From: a virus
Lineage: Duplodnaviria; Caudoviricetes
Direction: 5' to 3' (one strand)
IMG/VR virus record: IMGVR_UViG_3300044878_000177
Span: 1 to 33,435 of that record
DNA length: 33,435 bases
Part shown: positions 7,169 to 33,435 of the stretch, in pieces
Layout of the letters: every line of letters begins with the position of its first letter
Numbering within the stretch: the stretch's first letter is position 1
Program-made: the position numbers and the translations under genes
The notes under the pieces: model-generated
The model's input: only the letters and a program-made list of their open reading frames with translations
The model's database searches: none
Told to the model about the DNA's origin: nothing

Positions 7169-7414
7169 ATGTACCACGAACTAAAAATTCACCCCAAATT
7201 TTACAAGGATATACTATTTGGATTAAAGAAAGTAGAAGTCCGAAAAAATGATCGGAATTATCAAGAAAATGACCTGTTAATACTCAATGAATTTGACCCA
7301 AAAATCGAAAAATACACAGGCGGTCAGGTAAAAAGGAAAGTTGATTACGTCATTCGTGATGTAGCGGGTTTAGCTCCAGATTATGTGATATTACAAATTT
7401 CAAAACCTTTGTAA
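7169..7414 (+). CDS. DUF3850 / ASCH (PUA-like) domain protein
   Basis: HELKIHPKFY..I..G.K..EVRKNDR.YQ..D.L.L.E motif. Confidence 0.85.
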   Translation: MYHELKIHPKFYKDILFGLKKVEVRKNDRNYQENDLLILNEFDPKIEKYTGGQVKRKVDYVIRDVAGLAPDYVILQISKPL

Positions 7415-9655: not shown

Positions 9656-9913
9656 ATGAGTAAAAAAGATAGTCTAGATACGTTCTATCAAGCAATAGAA
9701 CTAGTTGAAAAAATAGTTTGTCAAAAAGCATTTGATGCAGCTTTGGCTTACGAAAAAAACTGTAGAGCTAAATATGATAGATGGAATCAAACTTCTTTGC
9801 CTATTCCAAAAGGAGAACAAATGATAGATTTTGCTATGAAATATGGCACAACGGTTAAAGAAATGAAAAACTGTGAATTTCAAGTAGAACAAATACTAGG
9901 AATAGATATCTAA
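9656..9913 (+). CDS. Hypothetical protein
   Basis: Follows the exported protein; stop overlaps the convergent gene. Confidence 0.6.
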   Translation: MSKKDSLDTFYQAIELVEKIVCQKAFDAALAYEKNCRAKYDRWNQTSLPIPKGEQMIDFAMKYGTTVKEMKNCEFQVEQILGIDI

Positions 9914-10425
9914 TCAAACTCAATTTTTAGATTTCCTTTTAAATCTACCGTATCATATTCGCCCGCTTGGTATTTATCAAGCGGGTTTTTTCTGCCCTTA
10001 AATGAGCATTCGTAAGTCAGTAAATAAATATCTACAATCGAATCCATTTTATTGAAACCTTCAGTAACGATCTCTAACTTCCCAGTTGTTTCACTCTCGA
10101 TGGTTCTAGCCACCTCGTCGATGGTTGCCACGTAGTCCAAGAACTTCAAACCAAGGTCACGATTAAGTGAAATATTGGAAGTATCTCGTAATTGCTCATA
10201 GCAACAATAGAATGTTATAGTTGCCGTTGGCACATCGGTTTGGTAGTCCACATCCCAATCAACCAATAGGGCTGGCTGCGAGAAAAGTTCAAAGTTTTCT
10301 TCAAACTGTTCTTGTCCAGCATAAATATCAATGTACTGTACAGGACTTATATTTTGGCTTGTAAACTTTTCTTTATTTTCGAGCTTCTCAAAAGCTTCAA
10401 TTACTTTTTTATAGAATGTTTTCAT
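9910..10425 (-). CDS. Probable tail terminator/completion protein (Mu gp37-like)
   Basis: YIDIYAGQ...PALLVDW pattern; position after the neck gene. Confidence 0.55.
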   Translation of the reverse strand: MKTFYKKVIEAFEKLENKEKFTSQNISPVQYIDIYAGQEQFEENFELFSQPALLVDWDVDYQTDVPTATITFYCCYEQLRDTSNISLNRDLGLKFLDYVATIDEVARTIESETTGKLEIVTEGFNKMDSIVDIYLLTYECSFKGRKNPLDKYQAGEYDTVDLKGNLKIEFD

Positions 10426-10444
10426 AGCTTAAACAAGGTTTAAA

Positions 10445-10954
10445 TTATTTTAAAATGTCGTTTATTTCTCTTTGTACCAATCGCTCTATTCTACGCAGTA
10501 ATAATGCCGATTCTCCAATGAATCGCCTTTCTGGAAGCGTTATTTTGCGTTTTCGGCGGTGTGCTTTTACCGTTTCAGTACGTCCTTTTCGCTTTCTGCT
10601 GTGTTTTTTTACAGTAATGGATTGATTGATTACTGCACCTTCATTGTGCGCTTCGGCATACGGAACATCAGTACCAATGGTTACGCTATTGCGGGTTACT
10701 TTTATTTTTCTAATTGAACGTTTCAAACGCCCGGACTTTACCATCAATGAACCTCGACTTGCAGCTTTCTTTTGTTCTTCACTATGCCATTCGGGCGATG
10801 GTTTGCGTTTTTTCCAAGCTGTTACGCTTTTATCAACCCAATTTTTACGCACAAAACGCTCCTTACTGAAATTGACTGCTTCAATAGCAGCCATTTCAGG
10901 AAACTTTCGGTATAACTTCGAAAGGCGATTAAGTTTGTTTACAAATTCTATCAT
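10445..10954 (-). CDS. Virion morphogenesis (Mu gpG-like neck) protein
   Basis: SGRLKRSI, IGTDVPYAEAHNEG, LPERRFIG. Confidence 0.88.
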   Translation of the reverse strand: MIEFVNKLNRLSKLYRKFPEMAAIEAVNFSKERFVRKNWVDKSVTAWKKRKPSPEWHSEEQKKAASRGSLMVKSGRLKRSIRKIKVTRNSVTIGTDVPYAEAHNEGAVINQSITVKKHSRKRKGRTETVKAHRRKRKITLPERRFIGESALLLRRIERLVQREINDILK

Positions 10955-12699
10955 GCGGTTTCGGCATTAATTACAGTACGTCTTAGCATTTCTTTAAACC
11001 ATGCTTCGACATCTTCCTTCGTCATTCCTCCATACGCACTTTGAGCCACATTGATACCGCCTTTATTAAACGCATCAATATGAATGTCTATTTTGCGTAT
11101 TTGATTTGCTTCGCCAGCCACACGACTCACATTTTCGCCTTGTTTTTTCTTTTTAGGGTCTGTAGGTGTTAGTTTACCATCAATAACAGGGGCTTTTAGT
11201 AACGGGCTTTTAGGAGCGTTATCTGTTGGCGATTTTGGGGCTAGTTTTGGGTCTTTTTCTCCTGGCGTAATCAAATTGTTTGCTTCTCTAAACTGTTTGA
11301 TTTTATCCAGTCCTTTTTGAGCCAATCCTGTAGGGTCAATTTTAGCGGCTAACTCCAGTATTTGTTGTAATGGTTTGAGTAAAGCATCAAGCAAAACAAT
11401 TCCTATTCTTTTTAAACCACCTATAATACCATCAGTTTGAAATGCCAATTTAATGCTTTCCCAATGGTCATAAAGCGATTTAAAGGCGCTAACAACTAAA
11501 CCTATTGGTCCTAAAAACAGCATTAGCGATGCACCCCACTCATCCCATTTTGCAATTGCAAGAACAATAATTCCAATTAAGGCGACAATTGCTATAACTA
11601 TTAGTCCAATTGGATTCATACTCATTGCTATATTCCACAACCATTGAGCGCCTTCTACAAGTTTTAGTGATTTGGCTATCTTGCCTAGCATTGGAAATAA
11701 CTCAGTTCCTAAACTGACAATTCCCGATATGGCCATTCCGCCCATACCTAACGCCTGTATTAAAGGCATCCAACCGCCTACGCTTTCTGCAATGGAGGTT
11801 TGTATTCCTGCTACCCAACTTTTAAAACCAGCATCCGCTGATTTAAAGGATTTGAGTTTGTTCGGATCTAGTTCCATTGTACCAAGCCCTAGAATGAAGC
11901 TCATACCTGCATCCTCACCCGCACCTTTAAAGATATCGGTCAATGCAAGTTGTTTGGCTTGAGCAGTTGCTCCTTCCATTGATTTTGAAATCAATTGTAC
12001 GGCTTCAAAAGAGGTTTTGCCTACTAAATCTTTCACACCTAATCCAATACCTTTTAAGGCTGCGAGTTGATTGGGCCCCATTTCTTTTAAACTCAAATTC
12101 GCCTCTTTAATGGAGTCAATTGCCTTATCTGAAAAGATACCTTGTTTACTCGCATTGGTCATAATGGCAAGCATTTGAGCGGAATCAATACCCAGTTCAC
12201 GTACTTGTGGCCCATATTCTTTGAACTGGTCAAGCATATCGCCGTTTAGGTTTGCTCCTTTTTCGTAACCCGCCTGCAATAATGCCAAATTGCTTTCAAA
12301 ACTACCACCAATTTGTTCCGTCATTGCATTGGCTGCTTTGGCAATTTCGATGCTGTCTTCGTTGAAAATCTTGCTTATTTTGTGAATTTTGGCACTCATT
12401 TCGTCCACATTAGAAACATCCATTTGCTGTAAAGCAGTTTGTGTATTGCTAATGTCATTTGTAAAGTCCAATTGTTCGGATACACTATTGAACAAATCCG
12501 TCATTTGATTGATTTTAACGGGGTCAAAGGATTCTCCAATATTAGAAAACACTTTGATTTGTTTCATATTGAAGCTTTGCAGTTTTCCTTCCATCTTATC
12601 CGTAGCAGCCGATAGTTTCGCCTGTACTTGAGATAATTTGTTGTTAAACATTTTATCTCCAAGCTCCATTATTAACTCTAATTTTGATTTTTTGGCCAT
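10951..12699 (-). CDS. Tail tape measure protein
   Basis: Helical, Ala-rich; DMLDQFKEYGPQ...DKAIDSIKE core; QWLWNIAMSMNPIGLIVIAI TM motif. Confidence 0.88.
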   Translation of the reverse strand: MAKKSKLELIMELGDKMFNNKLSQVQAKLSAATDKMEGKLQSFNMKQIKVFSNIGESFDPVKINQMTDLFNSVSEQLDFTNDISNTQTALQQMDVSNVDEMSAKIHKISKIFNEDSIEIAKAANAMTEQIGGSFESNLALLQAGYEKGANLNGDMLDQFKEYGPQVRELGIDSAQMLAIMTNASKQGIFSDKAIDSIKEANLSLKEMGPNQLAALKGIGLGVKDLVGKTSFEAVQLISKSMEGATAQAKQLALTDIFKGAGEDAGMSFILGLGTMELDPNKLKSFKSADAGFKSWVAGIQTSIAESVGGWMPLIQALGMGGMAISGIVSLGTELFPMLGKIAKSLKLVEGAQWLWNIAMSMNPIGLIVIAIVALIGIIVLAIAKWDEWGASLMLFLGPIGLVVSAFKSLYDHWESIKLAFQTDGIIGGLKRIGIVLLDALLKPLQQILELAAKIDPTGLAQKGLDKIKQFREANNLITPGEKDPKLAPKSPTDNAPKSPLLKAPVIDGKLTPTDPKKKKQGENVSRVAGEANQIRKIDIHIDAFNKGGINVAQSAYGGMTKEDVEAWFKEMLRRTVINAETA

Positions 12700-12713
12700 A
12701 TTGTTATTTTTTA

Positions 12714-12721
12714 TATCTTTG
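12714..12721 (+). promoter_or_regulatory. Antisense -7 element TATCTTTG
   Basis: TAnnTTTG pointing against the minus-strand operon, between TMP and MuF. Confidence 0.6.
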
Positions 12722-12726
12722 TATCA

Positions 12727-12820
12727 ACAAGTAAAACAATGCCTCTAACATTAGCGCTCACTGAGATAAGGAATACAAAGCGTGAAGGGTTCATTTAATT
12801 GAAGGTGTTATTTTGCCGTT
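12727..12820 (+). ncRNA. Putative structured small RNA, antisense to the MuF 3' end / TMP leader
   Basis: Closing stem 12731-12744/12803-12816 with 3 G-U pairs that form only on the + strand; promoter immediately upstream. Confidence 0.5.
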
Positions 12821-14148
12821 TTCCTTAAGAGAAGACCTTTACGTAAGTTTAGGTCTTCTTTTTTTGCTTCATACCACGTTTTTACTTCCAGTCCTTTTGC
12901 GGTCATTTCGCAATCAATTACTAAAATTTTATCGTTGTAAAACTTCAAGTACCTGGACTGAAATTTTCCTTCTAATTTATCCGGGTTATTATACCAAACT
13001 TCGTCAGGACTATTCAATATTTCTTTAATGTGCGGGAATAACTGATGTCTGTTTTCAATTGGTTTTACATACTTTCCTTTGGTGTGAAAATCGAAGTTCT
13101 TTTCAGTTAATACCATCTTACGGTCGTAGTAATCTTTGAAGCCCATAAAAGTCCCTGCTTTGTCTTTTTTAAACAATTCTTTCACATTGTCTGCAGTAAT
13201 GCTTTCGTCAATTGAAATAGGGTTTAAATCGGATTTAAACGATTCCCATTTTTTTAAATCATACTTGTCTAAAGTCATATCGTTTAACTTTTTTGGCAAT
13301 CCTTTGATGTCGCTGTAAAACTGCGATTTGGTAAACACTTCTTTCAAGTCCCCTCGATTGATATTGAACTGGCTTTTTGACCAATTCGCATTTTCGGAGT
13401 TAAGCATTTCTTGAGCTACTTTACCGCTCATTACTTCGCCATCCTTTGGTGTTCGGTTGTATTGTGTAAACTCACAACGACAGCCGTGACCGTTTGGCGG
13501 GAATAACTTCATAGCTTCACGATCACTCAAATTGAATATTTTTCCGTCTAACTTACGGTGTTCGTCTCTTACTTTAGAGTCTCCTGCAGATTGATACTGA
13601 ACAAAAGACGTTACCGTGTCCTTTTCGGATAAAAAGCGGTGATACGCTGCCGAATTTTGACCTACTGCAATCGAAAGATTATATTCCGTAGTTAGATAGT
13701 TTTGGTTTAAATTAGCTGTTCGTTCATTGGCTAGTTTCTTAAAATCAGCTTCTGATCGGATTTCGTTTTTCTCCTGGTCTATTAGCAAGTCAGTCATTGC
13801 TGCCAAACGTGCCTCCGTCTTTGATGCAGAAAATTCAAAAAGGTTGTATTCCATAAGTTGATACGCTAAACTATCGGGAGTATTAAAGCCTGAAATAGTA
13901 CCATAACCCGACTTTAAACCGCCTACTAATTCCAAAGCTTCAGCAACAATTAATTGTCCTTCTGTTCCTATGGTTTTCTTTTTATTCCATATTTGACCAA
14001 TCAATTGATTGGTTAAATCATCTAGTATTTTTGAACTGGATGATGCTGTAGGCGCGCTAGAACCACAGCATTTATGATAAGTAATCTTTTTTCCAAGGTT
14101 GAGTGGTTGGATGATTATCTTTTTGCTCGGGATTTTGAATTGCTTCAT
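12808..14148 (-). CDS. MuF minor head protein with C-terminal PBECR2-like nuclease-fold domain
   Basis: MuF motifs YLTTEYN, GDSKVRDEH..LDG, FPPNGHGCRC; C-terminal HIKEILNSPDEVW...RYLKFY...TWY...RKGLLL. Confidence 0.85.
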   Translation of the reverse strand: MKQFKIPSKKIIIQPLNLGKKITYHKCCGSSAPTASSSSKILDDLTNQLIGQIWNKKKTIGTEGQLIVAEALELVGGLKSGYGTISGFNTPDSLAYQLMEYNLFEFSASKTEARLAAMTDLLIDQEKNEIRSEADFKKLANERTANLNQNYLTTEYNLSIAVGQNSAAYHRFLSEKDTVTSFVQYQSAGDSKVRDEHRKLDGKIFNLSDREAMKLFPPNGHGCRCEFTQYNRTPKDGEVMSGKVAQEMLNSENANWSKSQFNINRGDLKEVFTKSQFYSDIKGLPKKLNDMTLDKYDLKKWESFKSDLNPISIDESITADNVKELFKKDKAGTFMGFKDYYDRKMVLTEKNFDFHTKGKYVKPIENRHQLFPHIKEILNSPDEVWYNNPDKLEGKFQSRYLKFYNDKILVIDCEMTAKGLEVKTWYEAKKEDLNLRKGLLLRKTAK

Positions 14149-15433
14149 TTTTTATAAGTTTTAAAATAGCCTCCATTATCGGTGCTGATACTACATTTTG
14201 GTTATTTGATTGAGTTTGTTTTTTGCCAGTTATTGGCACGTTGAAAGTTTTAGAAAGCCACTCTTCGTCTACGTCAAATTCTTCCATAATGCCTTTTACG
14301 ATTTCCCAAAACTTAGTTAGATCTATTTCTTCTTTCGATTCTATCCATTCAAAAACATCATCATCAGAAATGTAGCTATAGCCTTGAGTTTGTAACAAAG
14401 GCAATAATTCATCATTGATATTAAAACCTATATTTTTTCTATCTGATTGGCTAATTTTGAAATCTAAAGAGCGTTCGTGAACTTCGGTATTAGATCGATT
14501 GGCTTCATTGCTTCCTATCGTATTAGAACCCACTAACACACCTGAAATTTCAGTAGTATTGTATTCAATAAATTTTGAATACACATTGTAGGCATCTGTT
14601 CTATTAGCTTCGTCGAACTTGATAGTAGTTCCTTCAGGGAAAACACCTACTGAAGCTTCAGCCAATGCCAATAATTGCTTTTCGACATTATCGATGTGTG
14701 TAGAATTGCTATTATTGGTAGTTGCTGAAATCATCGGCATTCCAAACTTTTCGCAAAACTCAGCCCATGACTGTGCTACATTTCGTTTCCAAATTAAGTT
14801 TGGAATAATATTATTAATAAGTCCTAAAGGGTCGTCTTGATTAAGTTCAATTATCCACGGCTTATTTTGATCAGAATCATATTCTATAAAAATTTTATCT
14901 TTTGATAAATCAGGATAAATTCTTTTTTGACTAGGTACTAAGTTTCTTGAAGGTAGAACAGAAAATTTAATTTTCTTATCGTTAAACTCTGAAAACTCAA
15001 TTAATTTAGTTCCAAAAAGAATAGCATCTAATTCAAGATTTAAATAGCGATAAAACCATTTTTGATTAAGTAATTTGGTTGCTTCTTCGTTTATATCACC
15101 TGTTTTTTCATTTCTTATTTGAAATCCAACACTTAAAGTTGCAGTCTTTCTAAGGATAACATTTTTTAAAAGTGTTCCGTCCGTTTTCAAATCATCAACT
15201 AAATCAAAAAAGCGATTGTACCGTGGTGTTTCAATATGTTCAATAGCGGTTAGTGCCAAACGCCAGGATTGAATTTCTTTTCTAGAGCGGTCTTTGTATG
15301 ATTTGGCAATTTGCATAATGATGGCATCAGCATTTCGTTTGCCTGATTTCAAAGGCAAAGTATCTGTTTTCGCTATAGGCGAAAAACCGCCCTTATTTCG
15401 ATTGTTTAATATTCTGTTTGTATTCTTTCTCAT
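14072..15433 (-). CDS. Portal protein (DUF935 / Mu gp29-like)
   Basis: WAEFCEKFGMP motif; size; position. Confidence 0.9.
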   Translation of the reverse strand: MRKNTNRILNNRNKGGFSPIAKTDTLPLKSGKRNADAIIMQIAKSYKDRSRKEIQSWRLALTAIEHIETPRYNRFFDLVDDLKTDGTLLKNVILRKTATLSVGFQIRNEKTGDINEEATKLLNQKWFYRYLNLELDAILFGTKLIEFSEFNDKKIKFSVLPSRNLVPSQKRIYPDLSKDKIFIEYDSDQNKPWIIELNQDDPLGLINNIIPNLIWKRNVAQSWAEFCEKFGMPMISATTNNSNSTHIDNVEKQLLALAEASVGVFPEGTTIKFDEANRTDAYNVYSKFIEYNTTEISGVLVGSNTIGSNEANRSNTEVHERSLDFKISQSDRKNIGFNINDELLPLLQTQGYSYISDDDVFEWIESKEEIDLTKFWEIVKGIMEEFDVDEEWLSKTFNVPITGKKQTQSNNQNVVSAPIMEAILKLIKNEAIQNPEQKDNHPTTQPWKKDYLS

Positions 15434-15488
15434 AAAATGTAAAATTGTGCATTAGGATTGAGTTTAAACGTGTTTTAAATCGCAAACA

Positions 15489-15956
15489 CTACCATTTGTT
15501 ATTCGTAAAAGTATTCTTGCTGCTTAATCTGAAAGAGTCTTTCACTTCACCGGTGCTTTCATTTTTAATCATCGGAAGGTCTGCGTTGCCGTTTCCTTCA
15601 ACCATTAGCTTGAGCCATTCCAATGCATCTTGATATCGGTTGGAACGGTGTTCAGGTATCTTATTTGGCGCAATCGAACAATACAAATGATACAAAGCGC
15701 AATCAATTACAATCATTACAACAAATGCATTTCTTGTGTCAATTTGTTCGCCCGGATTGTCTCCCGTTGCTGGTTCTGACATTGGCGTGAAAATGGTGGC
15801 TACATCATAACGCCCGGCTAAATAGTTTTTGATTTGTGCAATCGCCATTTGTTCGGCACTCAATAGCTTGATTTCGGTGTAGTTTTCTAGTAATATGTTT
15901 TTGATTTCATTTCGAATCAAAACAGCGTAATCGGTATCTTTTATAAATCGGCTCAT
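15489..15956 (-). CDS. DUF1320 / Mu gp36-like head-tail adaptor
   Basis: IKNYLAGRYD, DCALYHLY, RYQDALEWL. Confidence 0.88.
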   Translation of the reverse strand: MSRFIKDTDYAVLIRNEIKNILLENYTEIKLLSAEQMAIAQIKNYLAGRYDVATIFTPMSEPATGDNPGEQIDTRNAFVVMIVIDCALYHLYCSIAPNKIPEHRSNRYQDALEWLKLMVEGNGNADLPMIKNESTGEVKDSFRLSSKNTFTNNKW

Positions 15957-17530
15957 TAGAATCTGTTTTTGTTGTTTTTTATTATTTCTTTACGAGATGT
16001 GGCTTTAGGCTCAAATTTGGTTACGAATGTGATTTGATTTACTTCTACTATTGCAGATTGTAACGCATCGGGACCATCATCATTTGCGCCGCTTCCTTTT
16101 TCGAAAGCATATAGCTGTTCAAGCAACATATCAAAGTCAATCGATTCTTTACATTCATCATTAAACCAAATGTTAGCACGTTCAAAATAGCCCATCATGC
16201 TTTCAATACGGTCGAACTTACCGTCCTTACTTTTCTTGTCTGCTACAACTGGAATATACCATCCACGTTCATCGCCTTCAATATCAAAATCATTCACAAA
16301 TTCATCTTGAGCAAACAAGCCCTCAATCCGATAACGGCAATTGTATTTTAAGAAATCATTTTGTTGTACAAAATCATACAACCATTTAGCAACATTCATT
16401 CTTGATGTTTTTCGAACGTAAGCGGCTAAAACGTGAAATTCACGCCCGATTTTACCCACTAGAATCATTGCCTTATAATCTCCTGCATCCTTATAACTTA
16501 AATCGCCATAGAAACACATTCCTTCATATTTGCTCCATTCTAACCTAGTTTTCCATTGGATTTGTTCGGGTTTAAACATTTCGCCATCTTGTATGTGTAC
16601 GTGCATGTATTCACGCATAAAGGAACGATAAGGCGTTTCTTCATATTTATCCCTCCAATATTGGGCGTTTGTTTTTTCTGGCCATGTAGGTTCGAAGGTG
16701 TGCAAATCTTTGACGGCTTTGGCGGTAATGATAAAGTGCTTTATTTTCCGTTTTGCCTTTAATGCCTTTTCATTGATTTTTTCAAACTCTTTTTTCAATA
16801 AATTGATAATACAGTTTTTGTGAAAGTTGTTATTAGCAACAATGAAGCGTTGTCTCAATCCTCCTTCGTCAAAACAACCTCTTAAATCCTCCCAAGCCCA
16901 TTCGTAAGCTTCACGGGATAGTTTATCATTCTTTACTCTTTTTCGAGTATCTGCATCATCCATTAAGATATAATCAGGCCGATTTTCCTCTTCACTTTCT
17001 CCACGAGGTGACTGGCCGATACTCATCGCTTTGAATTTTACACCATCGGTCGTGGTAAAATCACCGTTTGTCCAATCTCCATAATTAAAGCGTTTGCCGT
17101 AATCATTTATTAATCGGGTATTCGATTTTAATTGTGCCTGTATTTTACCAATCAATTTTTTTGCTTTTGGGTCGGTTTGACCAATCAAAAGCATATAAAA
17201 CAAATCTTTTGTGAAGTATAAAAACAAAGGAATCCCCATACCTAAATGCACACTTTTTGCACCTGATCTGTAAATCTCTCCAAGTACACTACATATTTTA
17301 TTATTAATAATTACGTCAGCTAGTTCTACATGATAAGGCGCACACGGACTTTTTGCATAGTTAGGAAAGTAATACTCAAACCATTTTATATAATCATTTT
17401 CAAGTCTTTTGATACGGTTGAGTTTATCAATAGGCTTTTCATTGATATCAATTGTTGTAGCTTTCTTAATTCTAACACAATGTGCATCATACTCCTTTAT
17501 CAGTTTTTCCCATTTTGGACTCATTGCCAT
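15956..17530 (-). CDS. Terminase large subunit
   Basis: RSGAKS, RPDYILMDD, nuclease YGDLS and NDDGPDA. Confidence 0.92.
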   Translation of the reverse strand: MAMSPKWEKLIKEYDAHCVRIKKATTIDINEKPIDKLNRIKRLENDYIKWFEYYFPNYAKSPCAPYHVELADVIINNKICSVLGEIYRSGAKSVHLGMGIPLFLYFTKDLFYMLLIGQTDPKAKKLIGKIQAQLKSNTRLINDYGKRFNYGDWTNGDFTTTDGVKFKAMSIGQSPRGESEEENRPDYILMDDADTRKRVKNDKLSREAYEWAWEDLRGCFDEGGLRQRFIVANNNFHKNCIINLLKKEFEKINEKALKAKRKIKHFIITAKAVKDLHTFEPTWPEKTNAQYWRDKYEETPYRSFMREYMHVHIQDGEMFKPEQIQWKTRLEWSKYEGMCFYGDLSYKDAGDYKAMILVGKIGREFHVLAAYVRKTSRMNVAKWLYDFVQQNDFLKYNCRYRIEGLFAQDEFVNDFDIEGDERGWYIPVVADKKSKDGKFDRIESMMGYFERANIWFNDECKESIDFDMLLEQLYAFEKGSGANDDGPDALQSAIVEVNQITFVTKFEPKATSRKEIIKNNKNRF

Positions 17531-17961
17531 TAGCCTTCCTGATTAATTTTAAACAAAATGAACTGTTTGTGATATTCCGTAAATAGCACGGCTGTTTTTG
17601 GATCCTGGTCAGCCATCCAGTTATCAAATTCTTTGAATACTGAAAAGACAATTTGTGTACTTGTGCTACTTGACAGTGTTTCGATTACCTTATTAATCTT
17701 AGCGAGTGCATCAGCATCAATAAGCGAGACTCCTCCAGTAGCAACTGTTTTTAATTCTTTGATTAGAATCTCACGAATCTTGTGCGGTGATGCTAACATT
17801 TCGGCACGCTTGTCTTCCCAACGTCCATCTTTTCTCCATTTTGACAATGTTTGTTCGGATACGTCCAGTTGTTCGGAAATAGCTTTTGCCGTCATTCCGT
17901 CTTCTACAAACATCCTTTCAGCCATTACTTTTTTTGCCTGATTTGTGAGCAAATTTGACAT
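17530..17961 (-). CDS. Terminase small subunit-like HTH protein (DUF1804 / Mu gp27-like)
   Basis: TAKAISEQLDVSEQTLSKWRKDGRW; likely ATG at 17961. Confidence 0.82.
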   Translation of the reverse strand: MSNLLTNQAKKVMAERMFVEDGMTAKAISEQLDVSEQTLSKWRKDGRWEDKRAEMLASPHKIREILIKELKTVATGGVSLIDADALAKINKVIETLSSSTSTQIVFSVFKEFDNWMADQDPKTAVLFTEYHKQFILFKINQEG

Positions 17962-17982
17962 ATTTTTATAGTGATTTAAATG

Positions 17983-18071
17983 CAAAAATCCTTATAAATC
18001 AAGGTGTAAACTAAAATTGTTGCAACCCTTGCGAACAATTTTTTATACCTTCTTTTATCCTCACATCTTTG
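17983..18071. promoter_or_regulatory. Symmetric divergent late promoter with central dyad
   Basis: Degenerate -7 boxes GATTTTTG (-, 17983-90) and CATCTTTG (+, 18064-71) are equidistant from dyad AAAATTGTTGCAA-CCC-TTGCGAACAATTTT centred at 18027. Confidence 0.65.
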
Positions 18072-30208: not shown

Positions 30209-30715
30209 ATGAAACCACAATTATTTGTAGAAAAGTATCTGTCGCATGCGAAAAAAGTTGAAGTCAAAACGGGGATTTCTGCCATCGCCACATTAACCCA
30301 AGCTGCACTTGAAAGTGCGTGGGGTGACGTTGCACCAGGCTTTATGTTTTTTGGGGTTAAAGATACCGATGGTATTAACGGTAATGAGCAGTTAATAACT
30401 ACTACCGAGTACACTAAAAGTATAAATAACCCCATGCCTATCGCAATTTCGACAACTCCTGTTGTTCGTAATGGTATCAAAATGTTTAAGCATAAAGGAA
30501 AAGATTATTTCAGGAAATACAATACGCCTGAAGATTGTTTTAATGATCATGCACAATTCTTTTTAAAGAATAAGCGATATGCAAAGGCATTGGCGGTCAA
30601 AGGAGATTACAATAAGTTTTTTGACGAAATCGCAAAAGCCGGGTATGCGACCGATCCCAATTATGCAAAAACTTTGAAAGAAGTATCAAAATCAATTGTA
30701 AAGCACATAAACTAG
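30209..30715 (+). CDS. Endolysin, GH73 glucosaminidase/FlgJ-like
   Basis: QAALESAWG, FFGVK, FRKY, AGYATDPNYA. Confidence 0.92.
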   Translation: MKPQLFVEKYLSHAKKVEVKTGISAIATLTQAALESAWGDVAPGFMFFGVKDTDGINGNEQLITTTEYTKSINNPMPIAISTTPVVRNGIKMFKHKGKDYFRKYNTPEDCFNDHAQFFLKNKRYAKALAVKGDYNKFFDEIAKAGYATDPNYAKTLKEVSKSIVKHIN

Positions 30716-30716
30716 T

Positions 30717-31295
30717 ATGAAATTATTGAAATACGTGGCGGTTTCGCTATTGGTATTTGGCTGTAAAACTAAAACGGTTACAGTTGAAAAATCAATTGAA
30801 AAAGAAAAAGAATCGATGACAATGCACTTTGATTCATTGCTTAAACAATCTACCAACACGCAATTAGATTGGCAGAAACAACAATGTAGTATTACTGATA
30901 ATTTGAAGCTATCAAGTGCTTTAGAATTGGATAGTTTAGGCAATAGAAAGCCATTTCATTTTAAGCATTATGTTGATGGCCAATTAGCAGAAGAAATATA
31001 CCTCGAGGGTGGCGAGATTAATAAAGAAACAAAGTCTAATAAAGCTGATGAGGTAGAGAATAAGCAAGAACGCAAACAAGAAAACACAAGAATTGAAAGT
31101 GATGTAGGTCAAAAAAAGCAAGGTGAAAAGAGTACCTTAAATAAAAACAAAAAGGCTAGTATTAAAGGCTTTCAGTTTGGTTTTTATATTTGGTCATTCT
31201 TGCTGATTGTTGTACTTATTATACTCACTTGGATTGCCAAAAAAATTAAACTTCCTGATAAGTTTAAATCGATATTCAATACAAAAGGAGGATAA
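30717..31295 (+). CDS. Unimolecular spanin candidate
   Basis: Lipobox VFGC plus C-terminal TM FYIWSFLLIVVLIILTWIA; after endolysin. Confidence 0.75.
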   Translation: MKLLKYVAVSLLVFGCKTKTVTVEKSIEKEKESMTMHFDSLLKQSTNTQLDWQKQQCSITDNLKLSSALELDSLGNRKPFHFKHYVDGQLAEEIYLEGGEINKETKSNKADEVENKQERKQENTRIESDVGQKKQGEKSTLNKNKKASIKGFQFGFYIWSFLLIVVLIILTWIAKKIKLPDKFKSIFNTKGG

Positions 31296-31427
31296 AAAAG
31301 CCCTCCGACATTTAAAAAAAACTCTCACATTCATTCTAAACTGACGCACTAAAGGTCGTCGGAGGACAATAAGTCTTCTGACCCTTTAGTGCGTTTGTTA
31401 TTTATGAATGTGAGAGGTGCAAATATA
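31294..31427. promoter_or_regulatory. Structured leader with antisense promoter upstream of the DNA-modification operon
   Basis: Nested inverted repeats 31322-34/31404-16, 31344-55/31383-94, 31361-67/31373-79; alternative pair 31302-09/31358-65; minus-strand TATATTTG at 31420-27. Confidence 0.7.
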
Positions 31428-31457: not shown

Positions 31458-32099
31458 ATGAATAAATATCATCAAATTTTACATCAAATTTTAAGTAAAG
31501 GAAAGAACCAGGATAACAATAAAGGTTCTATAAAGTATTTGCTGAATCAAACACTTGAACTTAAACCAATTGATTTATTGGAGTTGTTCGAAGGTCATGC
31601 AGTTGCACGAAAAAAACTAAAAGATGAGTTAGGCTTGTTTATGGCTGGGGAACGTTCCACTAAAGCGTATAGGGAAATTGGCGTGTCATGGTGGGACTAT
31701 TGCGGCCCTATATTGGTAAACAGTTACCCCACTTATTTTGAACAATTGCCAAAGCTTATCGAAAGGATAAATCTAGAAAAACGAACTTCTAAAAATTATG
31801 TTCTTTTTCTTGGTTCTAACAATACCGAAAGCAACCAACAACCATGTTTAAGTTTGATTCAGTTCCAAATCGAAAAAGGAAAAATTGTGGTTAGTGCCTA
31901 TCAAAGGAGTTCTGACGCCAGTTTAGGATTGCCGTCAGATATTTATCATTTATACTTAATCACTAAGCAAATAAATCTTGAATTAAAAAGCATTACATTA
32001 TTCTTAGGAAATGTACACATATACGAGAATAACATCGAGAATACTAATAGTTTATTAAGAGGAGAAACAGCCACTTTTAACCTAAACACGGGTAATTAA
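31458..32099 (+). CDS. Thymidylate-synthase-fold protein with cytosine-type active site (dCMP methyl/hydroxymethyl-transferase-like)
   Basis: QPCL (catalytic Cys), YQRSSD..LGLPSD, GNVHIYEN; ATG at 31458, 213 aa. Confidence 0.85.
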   Translation: MNKYHQILHQILSKGKNQDNNKGSIKYLLNQTLELKPIDLLELFEGHAVARKKLKDELGLFMAGERSTKAYREIGVSWWDYCGPILVNSYPTYFEQLPKLIERINLEKRTSKNYVLFLGSNNTESNQQPCLSLIQFQIEKGKIVVSAYQRSSDASLGLPSDIYHLYLITKQINLELKSITLFLGNVHIYENNIENTNSLLRGETATFNLNTGN

Positions 32100-32164
32100 T
32101 CACTGCCAAATACACTATAAAGATAGTGTAAAACAATCATTTAAACAAATATTCAATCAAAAAA

Positions 32165-33013
32165 ATGACACAAAAAATCAAGAAATTTACACAAGCGCCA
32201 TTACCTTTTATGGGGCAAAAGAGACGGTTTTTAAACCAAGTTAAAGAAGTATTAAGCAATTGTCCAAATGATGCAACATACGTCGATTTATTTGGTGGTT
32301 CGGGACTGTTATCACATACAATCAAGCAACATTACCCATTGGCAAAAGTGGTGTATAATGATTATGATAATTATAGGTTACGTCTTGGCAATGTTAGTAA
32401 TACCAATAGCCTTATTAGTGATATTAGGGCTATCGTGACTGACTGTCTAAAGGATAAAAGAATAGTAGAACCACAAAGGGGTTTGATTATTAAAAGAGTA
32501 CTGCAGGAAGAACAAACAACCGGCTATGTTGACTATATTACTTTGTCGAGTAATGTATTATTTAGTATGAAGTACGTGCAATCATACGCAGAATTGGAAA
32601 AGGAAACGCTTTATAATTGCGTTAGAATGAGTGATTATAATGCTGAAAACTATTTAGAAGGTGTTGTCATTGAATCCCTCGATTACAAAGAATTGTTCTC
32701 AAAGTACCAAGACTATACTAATGTGGTGTTTTTAGTTGACCCACCATACCTAAGTACTGAGGTTGGAACGTATAAGAATTACTGGAAATTAAAGGACTAC
32801 CTTGATGTTCTTAATGTGCTACAAGGTACTAATTATATCTATTTCACATCAAATAAAAGCCAAATAGTCGAGCTATGCGAATGGATGCAGGATAAGCCGG
32901 CTTTGTATAATCCTTTTGCGGGTTCAACCACAAGCACAGTAAACAATCAGGTTAATTTTAGTGCCAGTTATACCGATATAATGTTGCATAAGATAAACTA
33001 TAAATTTAAATAG
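32165..33013 (+). CDS. D12-class-like amino DNA methyltransferase (probably N6-adenine)
   Basis: APLPFMGQKR, YVDLFGGSG, YND, LVDPPY. Confidence 0.9.
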   Translation: MTQKIKKFTQAPLPFMGQKRRFLNQVKEVLSNCPNDATYVDLFGGSGLLSHTIKQHYPLAKVVYNDYDNYRLRLGNVSNTNSLISDIRAIVTDCLKDKRIVEPQRGLIIKRVLQEEQTTGYVDYITLSSNVLFSMKYVQSYAELEKETLYNCVRMSDYNAENYLEGVVIESLDYKELFSKYQDYTNVVFLVDPPYLSTEVGTYKNYWKLKDYLDVLNVLQGTNYIYFTSNKSQIVELCEWMQDKPALYNPFAGSTTSTVNNQVNFSASYTDIMLHKINYKFK

Positions 33014-33032: not shown

Positions 33033-33081
33033 CTCTCAAATTGAGAGCTTCGGTTTTTTTTGTGTTTTCTCTTAACTAATC

Positions 33082-33435
33082 TTATTGGACGATTTTTTCA
33101 CTATTATCCTTTTTTTGAGCTAATAGTATCACTGCTATTGATGTTATTATAAAAGTTCCATATGTAAATAAAAACCAAAAATTAATTATGGTATATTCTC
33201 TTATTAGTGCATTTGCATATGTTACTGGTATTAATAAAATTAAAAAACAAATAAGCAAGATTTTATAGCTCTTACTTTTATAGAAAATAACTAAAGCTAT
33301 AAGTATTGGTATAACAAAAAGTCCTTCCCATAATATAATTACGGAATTATTAAGTATATCATTAATAGATTGAAACAACCCTATTATTAATAGGGCAAAA
33401 TTTGGAACTTCATTTTCGTCCAATCCGGGTATCAT
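33082..33435 (-). CDS. AT-rich multi-TM membrane protein, probably 5'-partial (moron or host gene)
   Basis: Hydrophobic ORF reaching the window edge. Confidence 0.55.
   Translation of the reverse strand: MIPGLDENEVPNFALLIIGLFQSINDILNNSVIILWEGLFVIPILIALVIFYKSKSYKILLICFLILLIPVTYANALIREYTIINFWFLFTYGTFIITSIAVILLAQKKDNSEKIVQ

Follow-up and report, generated by a model that had tools for sequence, protein, structure and literature searches.

At the right end of a Mu-like Bacteroidota prophage, in the position taken by the mom operon in phage Mu, a gene encoding a short protein related to thymidylate synthase (ThyA) directly precedes a DNA methylase gene, raising the question of which reaction a ThyA-fold enzyme catalyzes at this locus and to what end. 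To address it, we analyzed the 33,435-nucleotide viral sequence harboring both genes (hereafter, the window), which corresponds to IMG/VR record IMGVR_UViG_3300044878_000177, a fragment estimated by CheckV to be 56% complete. The explanation that we favor, with moderate confidence, is that the ThyA-like protein methylates cytosine at C5 and thereby helps protect DNA, alongside an m6A methylase. A first-pass annotation of the sequence had proposed a candidate new modification system, which overstates the case: both kinds of enzyme are known, and the new parts are the stand-alone, kinase-free use of the ThyA-fold enzyme and the RNA leader preceding it.

Gene content of the prophage right end

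Pfam searches with the 48 proteins of the AT-rich window (GC ~0.34) recovered a Mu-like set comprising repressor, transposase, AAA ATPase, Mu portal, Mu F, gp36, Clp protease, holin and endolysin, in agreement with the initial assignment to a Mu-like phage; the small early ORFs mostly have no Pfam family. The two ORFs were called with the same limits as in the first-pass annotation (Table 1) and constitute the final pair of the late plus-strand block, the ORF that begins at 33082, beyond the methylase, lying on the opposite strand. The terminator-like hairpin that follows the methylase gene is likely near the right end of the prophage. Placement at the mom locus, as originally proposed, is consistent with this arrangement and with the upstream leader, which also precedes Mom in related phages. 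No ORF between 31295 and 31458 is in the role of com, and no Com family match was returned by Pfam in the window. As first reported, kinases, dCTPases, glycosyltransferases and polymerases are likewise missing from the Pfam matches of the 48 proteins encoded by this fragmentary record. A longer ThyA-like ORF with a GTG start at 31389 was rejected because its relatives start at ATG.

Elsewhere in the window, Pfam identified a DUF3850/ASCH-domain protein in the early region (7169-7414), ASCH-type domains having been proposed as readers of modified bases, and a Mu F head protein that carries a PBECR2 nuclease-like domain as a fusion (12808-14148). The head and tape-measure block (9910-17985) forms an inverted morphogenesis module, being encoded on the minus strand and flanked on both sides by plus-strand blocks.

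Table 1. Features of the late right-end region, in window coordinates
Feature	Position	Strand	Basis or remark
Late lysis genes (context only, outside the module)	30209..31295	+	ORF calls, Pfam
Glucosaminidase endolysin	30209-30715	+	Upstream context
Lipoprotein	30717-31295	+	Last two Gly codons form leader helix D
Conserved structured leader	31281..31427	+	Fold z, repeats, covariation, covariance model
TAnnTTTG motif facing into the leader	31420..31427	-	Alignment A3 columns, upstream-region counts
Short ThyA-fold protein, 213 aa (Cys130, Asp161); probably methylates C5 of a deoxycytidine nucleotide	31458..32099	+	Pfam, alignment, model
Predicted Hia5/Hin1523-type DNA adenine N6 methylase, 282 aa (FGGSG, DPPY192); likely of relaxed specificity	32165..33013	+	Similarity to SuMu gp53, phrog_56
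Terminator-like hairpin with T run past the methylase	33033..33060	+	Sequence

The methylase has no Pfam match itself, although one member of its family matches MethyltransfD12, and a search against solved structures returned 0 matches. It does match phrog_56 (E 4e-31) and SuMu gp53 (39% identity over 96%, E 7e-52), the gene for which lies directly after com at the right end of its phage. Its initial classification as a DPPY methylase is confirmed by a DPPY motif at residue 192 and a DLFGGSG motif at residue 41. Hin1523 and Hia5 are reported to produce m6A alone and to be very relaxed in their specificity (PMC3299994), and sequence similarity indicates that the methylase is likely a further enzyme of this type, producing m6A on DNA.

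Fold, active site and product of the ThyA-like protein

Searches of Pfam (Thymidylat_synt, E 2e-20), PHROGs and PDB sequences and structures all identified the 213-aa protein as a thymidylate synthase. An AlphaFold model (29-row alignment, mean pLDDT 81.9) aligned with E. coli ThyA over 208 residues with a Z of 18.9 and an rmsd of 2.9 (Foldseek, VIA-align), with model residues 1-211 spanning ThyA residues 1-264 and residue 211 aligning with ThyA residue 264. The C-terminal tail had been described as about 35 aa shorter than that of ThyA, but the folate cap is kept in the model (pLDDT of only 56 in this last block) and the ~30 missing residues are internal. MAFFT alignment did not place the tail on the ThyA end; the F207-x-L209-N210 tail motif is kept in 237-239 of the 242 family sequences.

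This family set comprises 242 unique sequences, at 50% identity or more, from 321 loci. The nearest relatives of the gene are found in Flavobacterium laiguense (96%) and F. fluvii (95%), and 462 matching stretches were detected in the species collection, versus no match at 1e-40 in a phylum sample of 400 genomes, which was accordingly set aside. A 42-row tree places the short family on a branch of its own (100/99) that is separate from host ThyA and from the T4 gp42 and Xp12 enzymes, the last two meeting on long branches with unsure placement. The Asp at the position of ThyA residue 177 is also kept in ten distant short members; distant members sit on short contigs, and scans of viral contigs yielded no loci for two of them, P0188 and P0138. 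Five ThyA relatives of full length (250-270 aa; P0224, P0235, P0237, P0254 and P0268) fall between ThyA and the short family in the tree; all have Asp at 177, and two keep His147. Three or four family-gene copies and up to five leader-gated cassettes per genome were observed in G005 (L140-L143, L345) and G004. A literature search conducted mostly outside subscription journals found no study of the family or its leader, and the family motifs are absent from four supplementary files of the MetaGPA study (PMC8670742), files that may simply lack sequences.

Alignment to RefSeq E. coli ThyA corroborated the active-site residues identified in the first-pass annotation. The catalytic C146 corresponds to Cys130 (TGT at 31845), N177 is replaced by Asp161 (GAT at 31938; Asp in 242/242 family sequences) and H147 by Leu131 (Leu, Val or Ile in 242/242), while the QRS.D and H.Y motifs are kept (R166=R150, S167=S151, D169=D153, H207=H187, Y209=Y189). 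The reported Asn, Lys and Asn at phosphate-binding R21, R126 and R127 are indeed present (N21, K112, N113), but Asn at the first position is restricted to the small clade of the window's protein (10 of the 242 family sequences, against 204 with Lys and 28 with Arg), so that the four phosphate arginines 21, 126, 127 and 166 read N (K/R in 232/242), K, N and R. Residues K22, E57, W78, W79, Y90, K112, N113, Q127, C130, R150, S151, D153 and D161, together with Y93 (the Tyr94 equivalent), are invariant (242/242), H187, Y189 and P91 are each present in 241/242 sequences, and Arg109 is near-invariant. Residue invariance across 242 sequences indicates that the enzyme is under strong selection and is not the product of a decaying gene.

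According to PMC8670742, Asp at position 177 changes the specificity of ThyA to dCMP, and contigs with modified cytosine are best distinguished by positions 177 and 147. It is reported in bioRxiv 2024.12.05.627091 that five of seven Asp-type enzymes made 5mdCMP in E. coli supplied with T4 gp1 kinase, while the other two gave no 5mdC in the same assay. Under the Asn177Asp rule, cytosine is likely the substrate of the ThyA-like protein. The cytosine specificity and anti-restriction role put forward in the first-pass annotation are supported by the invariant Asp, by the presence of a host ThyA with intact Asn177 in 5/5 host genomes, and by the use of a leader common to Mom and methylases.

The gene could alternatively supply dTMP, either from dUMP or via conversion of dCMP to 5m-dCMP and deamination. 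The closest solved relatives of the protein are ordinary thymidylate synthases, the genome is AT-rich, and a deaminase-family gene (31-38% identity, type ambiguous) is present in 5/5 hosts. dTMP supply is, however, at odds with the replacement of Asn177 and His147 by Asp161 and Leu131, with scores far under all eight NCBIfam ThyA cut-offs (best, 59 bits) and with the retention by the hosts of their own ThyA.

Two products of a cytosine-directed enzyme had been contemplated, 5-methyl- and 5-hydroxymethylcytosine, of which the first has gained ground and the second has lost it. The T4 hydroxymethylase signature consists of Asp/Glu three residues before the Cys, Ser/Thr two before the Tyr and no tail, and the T4 D145N variant is inactive (PMC6400193). 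This signature is missing from the family, which has Gln127 (242/242) and Pro91 (241/242) at these positions. 5-methylcytosine is the likelier product because the T4 signature is absent, the tail is kept, and the Xp12 methylase also has an amide (N162) three residues before the Cys. A 5-hydroxymethylcytosine product, with a role otherwise as in the favored explanation, appears quite unlikely: water could enter past the polar Gln that replaces Leu143 and the Cys that replaces Trp83, as it does past Asp145 and Val85 in T4, and no DHFR gene was seen among the recurrent neighbors scanned, but the water-activating acid, whose amide mutant is inactive in T4, is absent, the site-sealing tail is kept in the model (tail pLDDT 56), and no glycosyltransferase was found in the window or among the scanned neighbors.

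The upstream leader and its cargo

The ~145-nt leader contains a long hairpin (31322-31416; fold z -9.0), and a similar element precedes the module regardless of which gene is first. Segment A (31300-31309) pairs with D (31287-31291) in a short helix or, alternatively, with B (31358-31367), and the long hairpin carries B:C at its top, its inner stem being followed by a U-rich tract. Across 55 aligned leaders, two-sided changes were detected in 11/17 pairs of the tested part of the long hairpin and in 8/10 pairs of A:B; both helices exceed all 500 shuffles and all slid controls, with kinship uncorrected and the structure derived from the window's own sequence. Because B:C is favored at equilibrium and is followed by a U-rich tract (63/78 leaders), B:C would act as a terminator and A:B as an antiterminator, and the presence of G-U pairs within B:C suggests that the sense strand is the structured one. 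A:B forms without masking in 70/78 leaders, a pattern-selected and partly circular figure. Helix D is present in 58/80 leaders, with the upstream stop mostly ~30 nt before A; translation-coupled control via helix D was discarded as a general rule, since D falls within the upstream frame only in the window's clade.

The reverse-strand TAnnTTTG motif would be a Bacteroidota -7 promoter driving an antisense RNA. Its plus-strand form, CAAAnnTA, was found in 103/129 upstream regions chosen by position and in 94/113 pattern matches chosen without the motif, and the CAAA..TA columns are invariant in alignment A3, partly through the way of anchoring. A covariance model detected a single leader in the window (116 bits; next-best window match, 21.7 bits), a leader upstream of the small ORF hp44 in Hankyphage (57 bits), and 13 leaders across the genomes of five hosts, of which 11 lie at family loci and one each before a lone Hia5-like and a lone Dam-like methylase. 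No Rfam family reached its gathering score for the leader, the only matches being sub-threshold generic hairpins.

Scanning 31 of the 64 parts of a viral contig set for the leader pattern identified 120 leader loci, 113 of them distinct and 94 with identified cargo within 400 nt. The first gene in these 94 loci encodes a Hia5-like methylase (31), a ThyA-like family member (19, a share that is not unbiased, as the pattern was derived from leaders of the ThyA-like gene), a Dam-like methylase (18), an ABC-ATPase cassette (17), an N6/N4 methylase fusion (4), Mom (3) or a C5 methylase (2), the four kinds of DNA methylase together amounting to 55/94. Eleven long-flank cases, all without CAAAnnTA, have no cargo match, and the eight others end too soon. 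The Mom, C5, N6/N4, D12 and ABC labels are confirmed by Pfam, and the GNAT and formyltransferase labels were assigned by eye. All leader cargo of known function is DNA-modifying. Since the leader is common to Mom and methylases, the ThyA-like gene is tied to DNA modification rather than to dTMP supply, and this interchangeable cargo constitutes the strongest contextual support for a role in DNA modification. The leader is also a marker by which additional DNA-modifying enzymes of Bacteroidota phages can be located.

Several arrangements behind the leader are of interest in their own right. In 17 loci (L370:2763-5069, L363 and 15 more), the leader is followed by ABC-ATPase, GNAT-like and formyltransferase-like genes and sometimes then by a C5 or Dam-like methylase; this ABC-ATPase cassette (17/94) is likely another DNA modification cassette. 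True Mom-family genes stand behind the leader without com at L415:2626-3360, L454 and L466. An hp44-type 80-aa protein with a weak winged-helix match is encoded between leader and family gene at L082:4680-4922 and 66 gut loci, and hp44 is a candidate regulator in Bacteroidales phages.

In non-Mu Bacteroidota phages, family members at 50-57% identity (L183-L193, L220, L263-L273, L323) are found without a leader among replication and terminase genes, directly followed in one locus (L186) by a dCMP deaminase gene; an N6/N4 methylase gene lies beside the family gene in one non-Mu locus. Location among replication genes, once by a dCMP deaminase, fits nucleotide supply. In the window, however, the gene is in last place in the late operon, behind a leader common to Mom and methylases, and we regard dTMP supply as unlikely.

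A close counterpart of the module is found in Hankyphage (Bacteroides phage p00, BK010646), which encodes a 'thymidylate synthase' (DAC76694, 67.5%) and a 'DNA methyltransferase N6' (DAC76695, 53%) in the same order, at the right end and behind the leader, differing in the presence of hp44 between the leader and the ThyA-like gene. Hankyphage is a widespread, culturable gut prophage, and the function of the ThyA-like gene can thus be tested at once. In the expression data of PMC12135933, the main text of which makes no mention of the ThyA-like gene, silencing of the repressor induced 'ThyA' by log2 1.99, 1.54, 1.77 and 4.37 and the methylase by log2 3.88, 4.24, 1.62 and 2.40 at 1, 2, 6 and 22 h, respectively. 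At 1-6 h, 'ThyA' induction is ~1.5-2, versus 3-5.5 for most structural genes (PMC12135933), and this weaker induction may reflect basal expression in the lysogen.

These expression data also bear on the notion that the enzyme acts on CMP or the cytidine pool so that competitor phages are poisoned or kept out of the lysogen, leaving the phage's own DNA unmarked. MilA and BcmA carry Lys and Ala at positions 126 and 167, the Lys at 126 in MilA being tied to CMP use; the ThyA-like protein has the Lys (Lys112), but Ser151 in place of the Ala. The MilA A176S variant, which reproduces the Lys and Ser pair of the ThyA-like family, still turns over CMP (PMC5175136), and by analogy CMP may be a substrate of the ThyA-like enzyme. 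The weaker induction of the Hankyphage gene would also agree with pool poisoning. Nevertheless, we deem it decidedly unlikely, given that Ser151 is the deoxy-type residue, that the slot is common to DNA-marking enzymes and that expression rises with the lytic program in Hankyphage.

Independence of the two genes and route of the mark into DNA

A co-occurrence survey located a methylase gene at most 1.3 kb from the ThyA-like gene in 144 of the 239 loci with unique family genes, the partner being Hia5-like in 115 (76 after, 39 before), Dam-like in 18 and unclassified or broken in 11. No methylase is nearby in the remaining 95 loci, including 49 of the 124 that are fully flanked. Adjacency in 144/239 loci would be compatible with sequential action of the two enzymes on one base, but a methylase neighbor is missing from 49/124 fully flanked loci, the partner may be Hia5-like or Dam-like and the gene order varies, each gene also occurs alone behind the leader, and Hia5-type enzymes are reported to modify adenine only (PMC3299994). 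Because the two genes are not obligate partners, a two-step reaction is highly improbable, and the earlier suggestion that the modified base undergoes a second step, or that the enzymes must work as a team, is not supported.

Neighbor clusters seen in at least three loci were scanned with Pfam (59 of 96, leaving out likely antisense frames, recognizable lysis and tail proteins and very long ones). The 59 clusters, one of which is DUF4406, contain no kinase, dCTPase, DHFR, deaminase or glycosyltransferase. Similarly, no C5 methylase lies within 3 kb of the ThyA-like gene in the 321 loci, whereas Hia5-like and ABC cassettes do pair, in small numbers.

Several points count against the favored explanation: no kinase is among the scanned recurrent neighbors, although T4 gp1 was supplied in the published assay and dCMP is a minor pool in bacteria; two of the seven Asp-type enzymes in that assay gave no 5mdC; the phosphate site is remodeled, with invariant R126K and R127N, the Lys at 126 being the MilA feature tied to CMP use; and in non-Mu phages the family occurs among replication genes. 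The cytosine mark may reach DNA through dCMP and host kinases, through dCDP or dCTP, or by action on DNA itself; with its altered phosphate pocket, the enzyme could accommodate a di- or triphosphate, and a kinase would then not be needed. Folate-dependent, post-replicative methylation of cytosine directly in DNA would dispense with a pathway partner, none of which was found among the scanned neighbors, and would match all other identified leader cargo (methylases and Mom), which acts on DNA; the changed phosphate pocket, with its extra invariant Lys22 and near-invariant Arg109, and the absence of nearby C5 methylases also agree with it. We know of no ThyA-fold enzyme that acts on DNA, however, and the 213-aa protein has no extra DNA-binding or base-flipping domain. 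In addition, the family keeps His187 and Tyr189 in 241/242 sequences, the equivalents of the His207/Tyr209 pair that binds the free 3'-OH in both thymidylate synthase and T4 dCH (PMC5175136). A free nucleotide is a likelier substrate than DNA because of this pair, making direct action on DNA an unlikely explanation.

Under the favored explanation of parallel cytosine and adenine marking, the locus would be a mom-position cassette of two DNA-marking genes that work independently but are gated by one folded RNA leader, presumably through terminator/antiterminator control. The Hia5-type enzyme would make m6A on phage DNA, and the ThyA-fold enzyme, with folate as its methyl source, would methylate C5 of free dCMP, dCDP or dCTP, which host kinases and polymerase would build into phage DNA. 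The resulting partial 5-methylcytosine would provide armor against host restriction. A more far-reaching version, which we consider rather doubtful, holds that the family, large and highly conserved, methylates cytosine in dCDP/dCTP or directly in DNA and confers a one-gene, SAM-independent and sequence-independent 5mC armor, with a terminator/antiterminator leader and antisense promoter replacing Com across all Bacteroidota mom-slot cassettes. Base modification at the nucleotide level is known from lytic phages of large size, which encode the kinase, dCTPase and polymerase it requires. If the favored explanation is correct, a stand-alone version in temperate, host-replicated phages would represent a new way of modifying DNA at this level, and 'thymidylate synthase' auxiliary-metabolism annotations in the thousands (at least 8000 clusters) would be corrected.

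The ThyA-like protein shares with E. coli ThyA its fold (Z 18.9), catalytic and folate residues and C-terminal cap, and differs from it in N177D, H147L, R126K, R127N, W83C and L143Q and in two internal deletions (213 versus 264 aa). With T4 gp42 (23% over 87 aa) it has in common the Cys/Asp/His/Tyr core and a basic residue at position 21 of the family, whereas the family lacks the Asp145/Ser94 signature and has the tail, and no kinase, dCTPase, glucosyltransferase or polymerase was found with its gene in the window. The Xp12 dCMP methylase (QNN97214) likewise combines a ThyA fold with Asp at 177, a lost His147 and an amide three residues before the Cys, but identity is only 28% over 85 aa, the two fall on separate tree branches and the Xp12 enzyme keeps both phosphate arginines. 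Xp12 is moreover a lytic phage with full C replacement, in which DHFR and deaminase genes adjoin that of the enzyme; the linked deaminase, DHFR or kinase and the phage-encoded replication of such a system were not encountered with the ThyA-like gene in the window or among the recurrent neighbors scanned.

The adjacent methylase resembles Hia5, Hin1523 and Nme1821 in length (282 versus 281 aa), FxGxG motif, DPPY position (192 versus 194/191) and mom location (PMC3299994), a likeness drawn through SuMu gp53, but com is absent here and an RNA leader takes its place. Relative to the com-mom operon of Mu, the module has no Com, different chemistry and a leader outside Rfam families, yet both consist of the last late genes, carry DNA-modifying cargo and are apparently controlled through RNA structure.
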